36,138 nt of DNA from Candidatus Aenigmatarchaeota archaeon (GTDB lineage: Archaea > Aenigmatarchaeota > Aenigmatarchaeia > Aenigmatarchaeales > JACQIB01), in assembly GCA_038999215.1 (NCBI GenBank), contig JAWABM010000006.1, positions 1-36,138 of the forward strand, in the 5' to 3' direction. The position numbers are program-made. Shown here piece after piece: positions 6,001 to 15,000 of the stretch. How positions within the stretch are numbered: the stretch's first letter is position 1; the number at the start of each line of letters is the position of its first letter.

Positions 6001-9000
6001 GCCGAAAGATTTGACTTCGCCAAGAATCTTGCCGAAATCTATCTTGCCTCCGGCCCTGGCATAGAGATGGGCAAAATCAACGACAGGGACGCAGTTTCTG
6101 ACCTTCTTCGCTATCGCGACGCATTCGTCGAGGCTGCCGAAAGCCGAGTGCTTGCCCGTAGTCTCGAGACCTAGAAGGATTTTCCAACCGTTGCCGCGCA
6201 ACTCATCCGACATGACTGCGCATTCCAGCTTTATTTTTTCAAATGCCTGCTCCTTCGCGAGCTTGCCGAAGTAGCCGGGATGGAACACCACTATGCGCGC
6301 TCCCATTGCGTGGCCGCGTTCGCACGAGTCCAGTATGCGGCGCCTGCTGGCCGCGACCTTCGCGCGCTCAGCTGAGCAGAGATTTATATAATAAGGGGCG
6401 TGTATCGACAGCTCGACGTCGACAGACGCAGCCGCAGCGCCGAGCTCCTTCGCAGTCCCGAGGTTCATGCTGACGCCGCGGACGAACTCCACTTCCATCG
6501 CTCGCAAGCCGAGCTCGGCGCATTTCCTGGCACCGTTCGCGGAGCCGGCGCCCTCGGCGGCAATCGGTATGCCTGCAGGGCCTAGCCTTATACGGGCCAT
6601 AAAACAAGTTCGTCAAGGCAGAATAAAAACTTAAAGGGGGAACATGGTGTAAAGGATTATCTCCAGGACAACAAGGAACGAGCATATGGCGACCACATGC
6701 TGAGGCTTGAGCTTGATAAGGCTCTTCTCGTCCTCATAGTACCTCACGAGGCCCGCCATTCCAGAGGGCGCTTGCATCTGCTGCTTCTCCGCCATACAAA
6801 CCACTTAATCAGAGAAGTATTTAAATTTGCCTAGCCTCAAGCACCTTGCCGAGAATCATCTTGAACCAGGGCGTGTAGGCCTTCGGGTTTCTCTCTATGT
6901 CTTTCTTCAGCTCCTCGACGGAAATCCATTTCATCGCGCCGATTTCTTCGGGATTAGGCGCCAACGGACCGTCATACGTGCCGACGAATACGTGATCGAA
7001 CTCATGCTCAGACAGTTCCCCATCGGAATCTGCCTGATAGACGAAGCTCGTCAATTTTTTCAGCCTCGTGTCGAATCCGCACTCCTCCATCAGGCGGCGG
7101 TGGGCGGCGGCGAGCACGGCCTCACTCTTGCGCGGGTGGCTGCAGCAGGTGTTGCTCCAGAGCCCGCCGAAATGATACTTCGTCTTTGCCCTCTGCTGCA
7201 GGAGCATCTCGCCCTTTTTATTGAAGATGAACACCGAGAACGCGCGATGGAGCGTGCCGTGGTTGCGGTGGGCCTCGATTTTCTCCATCACGCCCAGCTC
7301 GTTGTCGTTCTTGTCGACCAAAACGACGAACTCTGGCATAAAGAACATTCAGCGGACAGATTATTAAAGTTGAAGAAGCGAGTTCAGCGATTGACGAAAA
7401 ATTAGGGGTGTGCTGGACATAGCCCGTCTTCTGTGGGGCGAATCAGCGCCGCGAACGGCGCGTCCTTTGCATCGCCCGGCAACATCTGTCTTAGCTGCCT
7501 ACCCGCCCCTCTTTCCTCATCAGGGCCTACTTGGCATTGCACCGCGCCGGCATTGCCGTGAGAAACCATTACGCTCCTCTTCGGCTGCCCTGACCTCTCG
7601 GCCATGCCACTTGGTGGCGGCGCCTTTGACGGTGGACGGAACTTCCTCGAACCCTTTTCAGCGAAAAGCGTTCACGGAAAAGGATCCGGCGGTTGCCTGC
7701 CCAGCTCACCGAGATTTAGTAGGTTGCCAACCCTTTTAAAACTTCCAGAATCAGCGCTTCAGCGGCTTTGGTTCTATCTTCAGGACGGTGTTGTCCATCA
7801 GCCTGAAATGCTCGTCGAAATAGGACCCGCATTCGCCCCTGTAGACGAGCGCCTTGCCTCCGTAGCGGGTCTCCATGACCGCGGGCATGAGCTCGCACTG
7901 CTCCCCGGGCCTCTTGAAGCCGTTGTTGCTGCAGTGGCCAACGCCTATCGAGTTCTGGCCGTAATCCTCGGTTATGCCTGTAACATAGGGGCAAAATACC
8001 GGCTTTTCTTCAGATCTCCCCTTTTTAGGCTGATCCTTTTGTTCCATCTTGACGCCTCGCAGTAAGACTGTCTAGATTTGGAAGGGATATATACCGGGGC
8101 CGCTAGAATTCGGCAAAGAATGGATTTCGGCAAAAAAAGAACCCCGGACAAATGCTTTATATATACGGCAGAGCTGGCGCTAATGCCAGAATTCACGAAA
8201 AAAATGTTGCCGTCGCAGGAGCGCGCTTTTAAGGAGGTCTAAACAAAAGGCCGTTGGGCGCAGTGGGCTGAAATGGTCGCCGAAGCTTCCATCTTACACC
8301 CCTGCTCCATCAAACAGGTCGTCTAGCCTGTGGCCAATTGCCTATTTTTCCCGAACGCTTCAACCTTAGATGCCTTCAGGCTTTAGCGTCTATGGCGTAG
8401 CTATCCGGCGTTACCGCAAGATAACCGGTGTACCAGAGGCCACGAGGGGGCGTTCCTTTCGTACTTGCCCCTTCTTCGGGTCAGGCAAATGCACCTTCAG
8501 CAGATATAAACCGTACTGTCTTTGTCGTTCGGTGTGGGCCGCGCTATCACAATTAAATTGTGCGAGACAATCTTGAGGGCTCATCAGCTACTCTTGTTTC
8601 GGCACGTAGCCATTGGGGCGGTCCAGTCATTGCCCGGACTGCCTCGCAAAAAACCTATTCCATACCCTGGTATACCGCAGTCATCGATATGGCTACCAAA
8701 CTCTGAAAGTTTCGGTCACAGCCGGAGCTAACGCTCGGTCTATGCGGTTCATCTTAGGGATATGGAAAGCAGGATCGGTGGTGACTTCATTTATCATCCG
8801 CACGCATCAACCGCTGTCGCAGTCTGCTTTCACCTGCGCGCGTCTAGCTATCGAAATAACCCATCCTCATTCCCTGCTTGAAAGACCCGTTGAATCATGC
8901 GCATCCCACTACCAAATCACGACGTACTGAACCCAGCTAATGTCCCCCTTTAATCAGTGAACACCTGCACCCTTGGCTACAGCTGCGCAGCCAGGAGGGG

Positions 9001-12000: not shown

Positions 12001-15000
12001 CTTTAAGGTCAGAAAAAGCGTCATCTCGTCGCCGATTCAGCCAGGTTTCCAATGAATTCCTAATCGTTGAACATACAAAGCCACCTTTATGGCAAGTATA
12101 TAGTGCCTCCCGAAGGTATTTAAAGGTTTTGACGGCGACTGCAAACGCAATGCGGTAGTATTTATCCTTTTTCTGCGCATTATTCTTTCATGCAGAAGCC
12201 GGCATACTCGCAATCGATAGTGGAGCAGGCGAGATTCATAGACGATTTCTCGACATTCATGAACAGCGTGGGCGACTGCTGGATAGGAGGAGGTTGGTGC
12301 GCATCTCTGATAACCGAGAGACTCCAGAGGGAGCACGGCGGGGTCGATCTGTGCGCAGAATCCAGCAACAGGGAGGACATACTGGACTATCTTCTCGACA
12401 ACGGGTTCTCCATAAGAGCGCAGACAAAGAACAAGCTTATAGCGAACAAGGATGATCTGAGGGCGTACATAGTGCTCATGGACTACGCCAACGGATGCTT
12501 CATGTTTTCGACCGAGAAATTCTACAAGAACATAAGGGTGCCGAAGGAATTCTTCAGGCGCCACGAAGGAAGCATAGAAGACCTAGGTCTTGCGGCGATA
12601 ACGCTGACTCCGGCCCTGTTCGTGAGCTCGAAGAAGGCGTACGGGAGCCACATGCGGGACAAGGACCTTTCGGACATAAGGGCCGTCGAAGCAAAGCTCG
12701 CGGAAGAAGGAATGGAAAAAGAGAGGGAGCTTTACGAGAAGGAGAGCAGGGAACTCCTGGCCTACAGGTAGGATCAGGTCTTGCTTATCAGTATTTCCAT
12801 GAACTCGTCTATGGTTATTACCGGGCCGCGTGAGCAGCTGTGCTCGTCGTACCCCCTTACTTCATTGGGCTGCACATCCTTGCCGTAAATCGCGAAAGGG
12901 AACGCGCCCGACTCGTGCATGCCCGAAAATATAGAAGTTATGTGGTCTGACGTCACAACCAGAAGTGTCGAGGAAACGTCGAGATATTCCATTATCCTCT
13001 TGAAGACCTCCCTGTCTATTTTCTCTATGAAGCCGCGCTTGGTGTCGAACTTCCTGTCGTGCGCAGCGACATCCGGGCCTAGTATGTGAAGGATGACAAA
13101 ATCGTGCTTCCTGAGCGCGTCAAGGGCCGCCATGGCCTTGTCCCTCAGGTTCGTGTTAAGGTCGCCTGTAGCGCCCGGAACGTCGATGACGTCCATGCCC
13201 GTCGCCCGCGCGATGCCCCTTACGACCGGGGAGGCGGCCACGCAGGCGGCCTTCTTGCCGAACATGTTCTCGAACGAATCAATCTCCCGCCGCATGCTCG
13301 CTCCGCGGAGAAGAATCATGTTGGCAGGATTCATTCTGAACTTGTTGGCAGGGTGCTCCTTCATTATCCTGCCGGCCTCGCGCGTCCACCTGTTCAGCAC
13401 ACTCGCTGTGTGAACGGCCGCATTGTCGTTGGTGAGCGGCTTTATCTCCTGCACCTTCATGCCAGCGACGCCGGGGTCGGAATCGCTCACGTGCGGCGAG
13501 GCGAGCACGTTCCTCAGCATGACTATGCACCTGTGGCCGACAGACTTGTGGAAGCGCACTACAGTTCCGTCGATGCTTATGCTTGCAATGCTCTCGGCAA
13601 TCTCCTTGAGCCCCTCCTTCTCCCTGCCGGCGCGGCGGTCCAGCACGATGAAATCCGGCTGCAGCAGGGTCTTGGGATTGTACGGCACGGTGCTCATCGA
13701 AGAGGGGACCTCACGCACAGTGGCGAAATTGGCGCGTATGCACACCTCGTCAGGCTTCGGGTCAAGGCCTATGCCCAGTGCGTCCAGATAGCCCCTTCCA
13801 GGATAGTCCTTTGGGTCGTAACCGAAAAGCGCGAAAGTCGAAACTCCGGAATCGGGGCCAAATTTGTCTGTACCGAGGCGGTTGTCTATCAGGCCGGCAA
13901 AGCCCTTTTCGGCAAAGAAGTCGAGCGCCGGCTTATTCGCCGCCTGCAGAGTCGTCTGCTTGCCTTCAATAAGGCCGTCGGCCGCGCCGTCAAGTATAAC
14001 GAGCAATACCTTCTTGGCCATAATCATCTCTCCAGCATGAACGCCTTCCTGTGAATCATCTTGTCTGGGGCAACACCCATGAGCATCCTCCTCTCGATGC
14101 TCTCGTCCACTATCGTGGGCTCCATTGTCTCGGCCATTTTTGCGGCATTGCCGAGCCTCCTCTGGTTCTCGGCGTAAAGCGTCATCAGCAGCTCGCCCTT
14201 CTTAACGCTATCGCCTATCTTCTTGTTGAGCATTATCCCAGCCTTCTTGTCCTGCGGCGCGCCGAGCTCCTTCGCTATCATGGCTATCTCCGCGTTCTTC
14301 ATCCACAGGACCTTGCCGGACTTCTTGGAGAATATCCGGGCAGTCCTCTTGGCCAGCGCGATGTCGGACGATCTTATCTTCGGATCCCCTCCCTGCGCGC
14401 CTATTATCTCCTTCATCTTTTTGAGCGCCTTCCCGCTGCCCAATATCTCCAGCGCCAGCTTCTTTCCGGCATCAATATTTCTGCTCTTTCCAGTCAACTC
14501 GAAGAGCGCTCCGACGACCGAAACTACCTTCTCGACAACGTCGGCAGGCCCCCTGCCCTCCAAGGTCTGCAAGGCCTCGCGGGCCTCGAGCGCAGGCCCG
14601 ATGCCGTTGCCAAGCGGCTGCTCTCCAAATGTTATGGCGCAGGCTATGTTCATGCCCATCCTCCTCCCGAGGTCCCTGAACTCGGATGCGAGCGAATATG
14701 CGCTGCCGATTGTTTTTATCTTGGCACCCCTGCCTGTAGGTATGTCTATCACCACGTACTTGGCGCCCACGGCCTTCTTCTTGGACATTATCGACGGAAG
14801 CATAAGCGGGTCTACGCCCAGCGGATGCTCGATCCTTATGAAAACATCGTCCGCAGGGGCAAGGTCAAGCGAACCCCCCCAGACAAGGCATCCGTTGGTC
14901 TTCTTGACGACCTTGTAAATCTCCTCTATGCCGAGGTCCACCGGCGCGATGACCTCCATCCTGTCGGCCGTTCCGGCCGGCGAAGTTATGGCCCTCGACG

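Follow-up and report, generated by a model that had tools for sequence, protein, structure and literature searches.

The pre-23S rRNA of this Aenigmatarchaeota archaeon very probably serves as the host transcript of guides for its own modification, which would be released from its 5' leader and from an ORF-less intron and methylate in trans. A preliminary description of the window, a contig of 36,138 nt, had proposed that the rRNA precursor brings its own 2'-O-methylation guides. This is supported by the C/D anatomy of the elements, the N+5 register of their antisense stretches, co-variation with the target rRNA and the existence of free-standing homologues, from which methylation is predicted. 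Leader and intron together contain four dual-guide C/D units, with N+5 targets at U2552, C1920, C2064, G2251, U2438 and G2424, and these guides most likely direct the marking of key nucleotides of the same 23S rRNA. Residue numbers refer to E. coli 23S (reference record L063, numbering offset 3).

The 23S gene is divided into three exons (Table 1). A TATA-like box, read by eye and matched by a like element before the leaders of many relatives, suggests a transcript start near 12090. With the start placed there, the leader shortens from the 500 nt first given to about 400 nt. Leader and trailer form a BHB processing stem, absent from the preliminary description, that would free the leader. The 396-nt intron lies after G2597 in the loop of helix 93; its longest Met-started sense ORF has 34 aa, and Pfam gives no match for the overlapping or antisense ORFs at 8613-8930 and 11714-12052. 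Its BHB is relaxed, with a central helix of 4/4 pairs, an inner helix of 5/5 and an outer helix of 1/4. An ORF-less intron at this site, previously noted in relatives, is present in all 17 same-order loci that span it (central helix 4/4 in 17/17, inner helix 5/5 in 15/17, outer helix 1-2/4), and its length ranges from 151 to 396 nt in the present set instead of the 179-646 nt reported before. Removal of the intron would be required for an intact helix 93. Rfam detected no group I ribozyme core, neither at the gathering threshold nor at E values up to 10. In four RNA contig sets of mixed-organism rRNA (best share 0.22), no joint across 8522-8917 or 9082-9207 occurs among the matches listed, and depth is zero over the 23S leader and the intron core, which speaks neither for nor against removal of the introns. 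A further ORF-less BHB intron, of 126 nt and following A2433, had escaped the preliminary description; no conserved or recurrent guide was found in it.

Table 1. Features of the pre-23S rRNA locus
Feature	Position	Strand	Remarks
23S rRNA gene	8235..11686	-	Rfam RF02540, 2407.8 bits
23S exons	11686-9208, 9081-8918, 8521-8235	-	three-exon gene
TATA-like box, pre-23S transcript	12117..12124	-	read by eye
Processing stem, leader strand	11687..11693	-	central helix 11693-11690, bulge 11689-11687; inner 8, outer 5 pairs
Processing stem, trailer strand	8228..8234	-	central helix 8234-8231, bulge 8230-8228
Element E1, H/ACA-like K-turn hairpin	12004..12063	-	K-turn strands 12040-12037, 12025-12019
E1 5' and 3' guides	12054-12047, 12016-12012	-	best target 16S helix 15
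Unit L-A	11860..11930	-	box C 11925-11919, D' 11902-11899, C' 11888-11882, D 11867-11864
L-A D' guide	11911-11904	-	C2601, imperfect
L-A D guide	11878-11870	-	C2064, antisense, N+5
Element E2, stem-loop	11817..11855	-	conserved flanks, no K-turn
Unit L-B	11738..11809	-	box C 11802-11796, D' 11781-11778, C' 11769-11763, D 11747-11744
L-B D' guide	11790-11782	-	U2552 (A-loop), antisense, N+5
L-B D guide	11758-11749	-	C1920, antisense, N+5
Second intron	9082..9207	-	BHB 4/4, 4/5, 3/4, only at shift 0
Intron hosting I-1 to I-3	8522..8917	-	396 nt, relaxed BHB
Unit I-1	8769..8877	-	box C 8870-8864, D' 8846-8843, C' 8797-8792, D 8778-8775
I-1 nested K-turn hairpin	guide 8819-8811, box 8810-8807	-	U2504
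I-1 D guide	8789-8780	-	G2424
Unit I-2, H/ACA-like hairpin	8656..8765	-	internal loop 8756-8749/8673-8668, ANA tail 8658-8656
Unit I-3	8577..8635	-	box C 8630-8624, degenerate D' 8611-8608 in plain hairpin, D 8584-8581
I-3 D' guide	8622-8614	-	G2251 (P-loop), antisense
I-3 D guide	8593-8586	-	U2438, duplex with internal mismatch

The five guides listed in the preliminary description, to G2424, G2251, C2064, U2552 and C1920, are all at their given positions. They do not form simple repeats of box C, antisense and D-like box; each unit is a K-turn RNA with a pair of guides, and the inventory had missed their second guides and the H/ACA-like hairpins. The additions comprise guides to U2438 and, in a nested hairpin, to U2504, as well as two H/ACA-like hairpins, one of them directed at the unlinked 16S rRNA. 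Of the five double-K-turn structures with guides in the genome (571 kb), three lie in these 0.8 kb. The terminal C/D K-turn is closed by a stem that forms, with several pair types, in 17-19 of the 23 copies known of the G2251/U2438 unit, four failures being due to mis-anchoring on a doubled box, and in 8-9 of 10 copies of the leader unit. An internal D'/C' motif is found in L-A, L-B and I-1, not in I-3 of this genome, and the inner K-turn is kept in most relatives. The boxes deviate from the textbook C/D consensus, in that only the K-turn core is retained, one consensus box C occurs per region, and the first two letters of the D boxes are variable. Rfam searches of leader and intron at E values up to 10 returned no sRNA family and two irrelevant weak matches, and a pattern scan for the leader unit was too loose to be useful (71 of 80 listed loci were bacterial).

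Several guides are less regular. The D' box of the P-loop unit I-3, already described as degenerate, lacks the terminal GA, and the unit has lost its inner K-turn; the same holds for G004, G008, G018, G034 and L073. Of the 23 copies of the G2251/U2438 unit, 17 have a D' with a final GA and six a degenerate one, with the antisense intact. C2601 was not recovered as an L-A D' target by the strict scan, and relatives aim at A2600 (seven genomes). The D' guide of I-1 is an orphan or decayed; U2449 was rejected as its target, being out of register in this genome. The G2424 guide of I-1 is found in this genome (G000), G004, G029 and G035, and the nested U2504 hairpin, among the genomes tested, in this genome only.

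The register of the guides was examined with antisense cores for whose choice no D-box rule was applied. A box has its GA at N+5 in 22 of 24 cases for U2552, 11/13 for C1920, 11/16 for G2251, 9/12 (genomes) for C2064 and 6/9 for U2449. In a scan of 30 leaders and 17 introns, each scored on its own rRNA, the U2552 guide recurs in register in 25 of the 28 genomes with an available target, whereas 100 shuffles reach 2-4 at most and real-DNA controls 3 (16S leaders, n=29; 23S trailers, n=25); no U2552 guide was found in the regions scanned of G047, G060 and G043. This own-rRNA scoring removes the earlier caveat that relatives' targets had been scored on the rRNA of the present genome, and the relatives are not independent in these counts. 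A test of own against swapped targets gave 123/2/0, 12/0/0 and 17/0/0, and is biased because the guides had been chosen on their own target. The guides exceed chance only through the comparison across genomes.

Guides and targets change together in several independent lineages, with at least six separate changes. At the A-loop these comprise U2552G/C2556U (G010, G017, G012), U2555C (G049, G056, G045) and G2550A, which is followed between two species of one genus. The C1920 guide tracks C1920U (G051, G057) and U1925G (G049, G056), and C2437U is matched twice independently (G026/G029/G035 and G012). The location of the units is fluid. Twelve genomes have the G2251/U2438 unit in the intron, three in the leader and one in the trailer, and at four loci in other DPANN genomes it stands alone; free-standing homologues with a canonical inner K-turn are L065, L069, L074 and L075. 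The movement of guides between leader and intron that had been claimed is borne out by one clade, which exchanged the A-loop and P-loop units in what the tree resolves as a single event.

The coincidence of antisense matches within a K-turn-rich RNA that merely stabilizes the leader and the intron to allow splicing and processing is a most improbable explanation. Scanned loosely and by itself, this genome does yield 40 matches of at least 8 bp, mostly by chance, and the total of 436 hits across genomes is a modest excess over shuffles (mean 350, maximum 393). However, a single site recurs in 25 of 28 genomes, compensatory changes occur in several lineages, and homologues stand free of rRNA, so that recurrence, register and these homologues largely refute a reading by chance. 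It is also very unlikely that the units are decaying relics of formerly active guides whose working copies lie in the unassembled 12% of the genome. The degenerate D' boxes, the orphan guide in I-1 and a completeness of 88% (571 kb assembled) would fit such decay, but the guides match their own rRNA in register over 9-10 bp (duplexes overall are short, 7-10 bp), and the arrangement of the elements and the K-turn stems are conserved throughout the order. Moreover, a scan of the 571 kb found no further convincing guide.

A role as L7Ae-bound folding chaperones, which would hold strands of the peptidyl-transferase region apart or together with little or no methylation, is unlikely as a general account and most plausible for the P-loop antisense, which outlasts its D' box in the six degenerate copies. 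Dual guides to distant strands have been proposed as chaperones (PMC4644070, as far as its available text goes), and E2, a conserved stem-loop in 17 of 30 leaders, is devoid of a K-turn and is a possible pairing partner of 16S helix 28 around U1391. As a guide to U1391, E2 was rejected: the site ties with a 23S site (8.78 vs 8.77 of 11), and no compensation is seen in G016/G021. Chaperones, however, need no GA box at N+5, yet the box is kept in most genomes even where the target base changes. Nor was a stand-alone RlmE found that could make Um2552; the best FtsJ/RlmE match in 61 genomes was partial, at 40.6 bits.

The hairpins I-2 and E1 resemble H/ACA RNAs. I-2 has a lower stem, a pocket, an upper stem that bears a K-turn, and an ANA tail; the hairpin, recognized by its K-turn strand, is found in 15 of 17 introns, with ANA 14-16 nt from the pocket in 11 of these, as judged by eye. 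Its target is tentatively 23S 2607-2617 (U2610/U2611), which ranked first of 277,952 site/geometry pairs in a bipartite search, narrowly (7.07 vs 6.96); a strict contiguous pocket search gave no site common to more than 3 of 15. H69 (1915/1917), 2696, A2577 and the tRNA T-arm were dropped as targets for lack of co-variation. E1 occurs in 11 of 30 leaders, and its best 16S site, which we take to be about U368 in E. coli numbering, scored 11.33 of 12 (mean 4.03, sd 1.19; six genomes with 16S), with no compensatory change between E1 and this target. L013 was left out of the I-2 and E1/E2 searches as a near-duplicate, and the 16S of G032 out of the 16S alignment. Both hairpins probably load Cbf5, Nop10 and L7Ae as pseudouridylation guides, a weaker case than that of the C/D units. 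Their layout agrees with classic and atypical archaeal H/ACA RNAs, which are described in the available portions of PMC7075261 and PMC11077068 as internal-loop hairpins with an upper-stem K-turn and an ANA about 15 nt from the pocket, the atypical ones without a lower stem. They differ in lying inside an rRNA precursor, in having candidate targets, and in the distance from pocket to K-turn, which is 6-8 nt in I-2 and about 8-9 nt on the 5' strand in E1 instead of the known 9-10 nt.

The genome encodes the proteins for such a system. Fibrillarin, Nop5 and L7Ae, reported before, are recovered as motif matches on contigs C14 and C13 (Nop5 as PF01798 on C14); Cbf5 and splicing endonuclease motifs, Nop10 and RtcB are also present, and Gar1 was not found in the 88% complete genome. 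In the preferred reading, in which the pre-23S rRNA hosts its own guides, one promoter would give leader, 23S and trailer, the splicing endonuclease would cut at two BHB motifs, the one in the leader/trailer stem and the relaxed one of the intron, and RtcB, by analogy with known archaeal processing, would join the exons and close the intron into a circle. Leader and intron would each form a row of K-turns on which L7Ae, Nop5 and fibrillarin assemble, with 2'-O-methylation predicted at U2552, C1920, C2064, U2438, G2424 and probably G2251. By analogy with the tRNA-Trp intron guide, the guides would most likely act in trans after release; E1 could act only in trans because the 16S gene is on another contig. 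The units were probably ordinary free-standing sRNAs captured into the precursor, and the intron would have become fixed across the order once it held needed guides. A more far-reaching view, to which we give somewhat less than an even chance, is that the pre-23S is a self-contained modification operon carrying nearly the whole C/D and H/ACA guide set for both subunits, released 1:1 by the endonuclease, with leader, introns and trailer as interchangeable guide slots and the G2597 intron as an essential, domesticated element throughout the order.

Tang et al. (2002) reportedly found C/D motifs in archaeal rRNA spacers that had been ligated; K-turn motifs in BHB-released pre-rRNA spacers are a feature in common with the present case, and antisense guide function for rRNA sites is said not to have been demonstrated. 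The closest known system is the euryarchaeal pre-tRNA-Trp intron (Haloferax volcanii; Pyrococcus sR50), a BHB intron that likewise serves as a C/D guide for its own host RNA; it is released by the splicing endonuclease, and was first assumed to act in cis and later shown to act in trans (PMC7994747, in part). That intron is one guide RNA, whereas here four dual C/D units and the H/ACA-like hairpins are spread over the leader and intron of an rRNA precursor, and units change places from species to species. Archaeal C/D sRNAs that are free-standing or dicistronic (sRNA-tRNA, sRNA-sRNA, ORF-overlapping) share the C-D'-C'-D order, the N+5 rule, targets at U2552 and G2251 (predicted in five and three of seven archaea, respectively; PMC4644070) and a fluid context. 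The contexts given in the available text of PMC7994747, PMC6009581 and PMC4644070 include no rRNA leader or rRNA intron, and the boxes here are non-canonical K-turns. No printed case of C/D guides in rRNA introns was found in the literature, and the supplementary sRNA tables of PMC4644070 and PMC6009581 may contain homologues. Archaeal BHB rRNA introns (Desulfurococcus, Staphylothermus, Pyrobaculum) similarly have a BHB at the junction and lie in the functional core of the 23S; those covered in the accessible part of PMC3608112 are sporadic and often carry homing endonucleases, in contrast to the ORF-less, guide-filled intron described here, which is fixed in its order (17 of 17 loci). Eukaryotic snoRNAs encoded in introns or in polycistronic transcripts are also cut from a host transcript tied to ribosome making, but their hosts are spliced by the spliceosome (PMC7994747, in part), while here the host is the pre-rRNA itself and splicing is of the tRNA type.

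ORF-less archaeal rRNA introns would thereby gain a job and a reason for their fixation, and the question whether such introns give rise to non-coding RNAs, left open in the portion of the review available (PMC3608112), would be answered. The arrangement would mean that archaea arrived independently at the principle of eukaryotic snoRNAs, guides made from a host transcript, the host in this case being the rRNA precursor. It would provide naturally occurring circular RNAs with several guides each, and C/D boxes of non-canonical form, both testable with purified proteins, and a predicted rRNA modification map, drawn from sequence alone, of an uncultured DPANN lineage.

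The box C/D guide array that the preliminary description placed in the pre-23S rRNA is real and conserved, and the precursor very probably hosts functional guides, as predicted from sequence. The 23S gene and its surroundings are listed below. Positions within the 23S rRNA follow E. coli numbering, obtained from locus L063 minus a constant 3, an offset fixed by anchor numbers. The genome (571 kb, 88% complete) carries its 16S gene on a different contig from the 23S gene; that gene (L031, contig C5) contains a 419-nt intron with an apparent LAGLIDADG-type ORF (judged by eye, with an N run inside) and an additional 45-nt insertion. 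The genes flanking the 23S region at 12190-15583 and 6821-7348 show no link with the guides.

Features of the 23S rRNA region on the contig
Feature	Position	Strand	Basis or remark
NUDIX protein	6821-7348	minus	neighbouring gene
RNase P RNA gene	7408-7709	minus	~500 nt 3' of 23S, same strand
23S rRNA gene	8235-11686	minus	sequence-family match
Second ORF-less 23S intron, full BHB	9082-9207	minus	126 nt, after A2433
Weak nucleotidyltransferase-like match	12190-12771	plus	Pfam
Phosphoglycerate mutase	12774-14027	minus	neighbouring gene
AMP phosphorylase	14024-15583	minus	~41% to haloarchaeal homologues

Thirty 23S loci were fetched from the 38 genomes having a match. All 17 same-order loci that cover the site have an insertion of 151-396 nt after G2597, with a longest sense ORF of 10-58 aa, which bears out the ORF-less intron previously reported at this site in relatives. 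Within the same class, seven loci lack the insertion and G043 is ambiguous. The G2597 introns display a relaxed BHB, in which the central helix is complete (4/4) in 17/17, the inner helix (5/5) in 15/17, and the outer helix retains 1-2 of 4. In this genome a canonical BHB processing stem joins the leader and the trailer, a motif given in excerpts of PMC7714728 as a splicing endonuclease cleavage site in other archaea; of 25 loci scored, 16 form such a stem with at least 11 flanking pairs.

The A2433 intron interrupts the stretch that separates the G2424 and U2438 guide targets, and insertions at the same site are present in G023, G002 and G003. Another ORF-less 23S intron recurs near 2478 (L017, L019, L020, L022, L026, L027, L029; L024 differs, and this genome has none). 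A conserved K-turn strand in it precedes sequence antisense to about 2504-2509, and this intron is probably a further guide slot. An insertion of 100-172 nt near the 3' end of the 16S gene (reference position 1420-1426), recurrent in 12 of 30 loci (L040, L041, L043, L046, L051, L052, L054, L055, L058-L061), may be another guide-bearing intron.

A loose scan of this genome by itself yields 40 matches, so that one genome proves little. A strict scan was applied to 30 leaders (520 nt each) and 17 introns, recording the N+5 site of every NNGA box behind at least 8 nt antisense to the genome's own mature 23S or 16S. U2552 was recovered in 25 genomes (target present in 28), with U2449 in 7, C1920 in 6, C2064 and A2600 in 5 each, and G2251 in 3. 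The most-shared site in 100 dinucleotide shuffles reached 2, 3 or 4 genomes, and matches totalled 436 versus a shuffle mean of 350 (maximum 393). Because shuffles remove kinship, real homologous DNA was also scanned: in 29 16S leaders and 25 23S trailers no site was shared by more than 3 genomes, these all from one genus, in agreement with the earlier null result for shared guides in 16S leaders. A 16S site matched in 6 genomes is a chance match of the U2552 guide. When antisense cores were chosen without a D-box requirement, GA occupied the N+5 register in 22/24 cores for U2552, 11/13 for C1920, 11/16 for G2251, 9/12 for C2064 and 6/9 for U2449; the two U2438 cores that survived the filter are both at N+5.

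The units are built as dual-guide RNAs. A terminal stem leads to a three-base bulge with a final U and to tandem GA pairs, after which come the D' guide, the inner D'/C' K-turn, the D guide and the D box. Their boxes retain the K-turn core only, and Rfam consequently misses them. Searching the whole 571 kb without bias for double-K-turn structures returned 9; five have an 8-nt rRNA match, three of which lie in the leader and intron. The intron unit I-3 (G2251 in the P-loop, and U2438) was detected in 23 of the 37 sequences examined. Its D' box has a GA end in 17 of these 23 copies and has degenerated to a plain hairpin in this genome, whose P-loop D' box had already been noted as degenerate. 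The leader unit L-B (U2552 and C1920) is whole in 10 sequences. The intron unit I-1 contains the G2424 guide; its inner stem encloses a further K-turn hairpin, which bears a 9-bp guide to U2504 seen in this genome alone.

Guides change together with their targets, and the co-varying changes sit on separate branches of the 23S tree (FastTree, all 30 rows). In G010, G017 and G012, whose A-loop has G2552 and U2556, the guide is altered and its aim stays at 2552; between G010 and G017 it follows a G/A difference at 2550. Matching guide changes accompany U2555C (G049, G056, G045), C1920U (G051, G057), U1925G (G049, G056) and C2437U (G026, G029, G035 and, separately, G012). Comparison of own with swapped targets gave 123/2/0, 12/0/0 and 17/0/0, a test given little weight since the guides had been chosen by own-target score. 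Position 2552, usually U, is G in G010, G017, G012, G047 and G060, and A in G043. At position 2503 (about 9012 in the window), C replaces the usual A here and in 16/16 relatives displayed.

The G2251/U2438 unit is located in the intron in 12 genomes and in the leader in G010, G017 and G012, where the 2552 guide is in the intron. As these three genomes make a single clade of the 23S tree (support 0.935), the exchange represents one event, and guides do change place between leader and intron among species, as proposed. In G034 (L005) the G2251/U2438 unit lies outside the intron, about 100 nt downstream of 23S. The C1920 guide of G049 and G056, with its compensatory change, is found inside another 23S intron near 1081-1091 (82-86 nt; L006, L018). 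Across the genome collection the G2251/U2438 pattern occurs at 13 loci, nine of them in the 2597 intron (several being DNA already in the locus set). The other four have no 23S match in the DNA examined, which for L075 covers only 255 nt on one side. All four display a canonical inner K-turn with AT-rich tracts upstream, and two are labelled Micrarchaeota or a family of Micrarchaeota. These loci mark the unit as an ordinary DPANN sRNA that the pre-23S captured.

An H/ACA-like hairpin with an internal loop, upper stem and apical K-turn (I-2 type) is present in 15 of 17 introns, 11 of these hairpins having a lower stem and ANA 14-16 nt below the pocket (tails by eye). It agrees in plan with the H/ACA layout in excerpts of PMC7075261, but its upper stem is 2-3 nt shorter. 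Its top site over both rRNAs, 23S 2607-2617, ten bases beyond the intron's own 3' splice site, leads narrowly (7.07 versus 6.96 of 9; 14 genomes). A K-turn hairpin of the E1 type heads 11 leaders, and its two-sided pairing with 16S helix 15 scores 11.33 of 12 (mean 4.03, sd 1.19; 6 genomes, anchors set by hand), with no compensatory changes in these six. The stem-loop E2 occurs in 17 leaders.

Fibrillarin, L7Ae, Cbf5, Pus10 and the splicing endonuclease are represented in this genome by motif matches, and Nop5, Nop10 and RtcB are encoded, in line with the fibrillarin, Nop5 and L7Ae named in the preliminary description. Gar1 was not found in this 88% complete genome. FtsJ/RlmE is matched only weakly and in part in 59 of 61 genomes, the best score being 40.6 bits, so Um2552 would depend on the guide.

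The pre-23S would be cut and its products circularised, guide RNPs would assemble and methylate their targets, pseudouridylation may also be directed, and the intron may be essential. Once released, the guides would likeliest act in trans, by analogy with the tRNA-Trp intron in excerpts of PMC7994747; acting in cis during transcription is the less likely alternative for the 23S sites. A search of largely open-access literature found no paper that describes guides lying in an intron or leader of archaeal rRNA, and excerpts of PMC3608112 pose as an open question whether archaeal rRNA introns yield non-coding RNAs. The parts are known, and their arrangement we could not find in print. The pre-23S described here adds the guide array, the leader as a second slot, fixation across the order, co-variation with the targets and the H/ACA-like parts.
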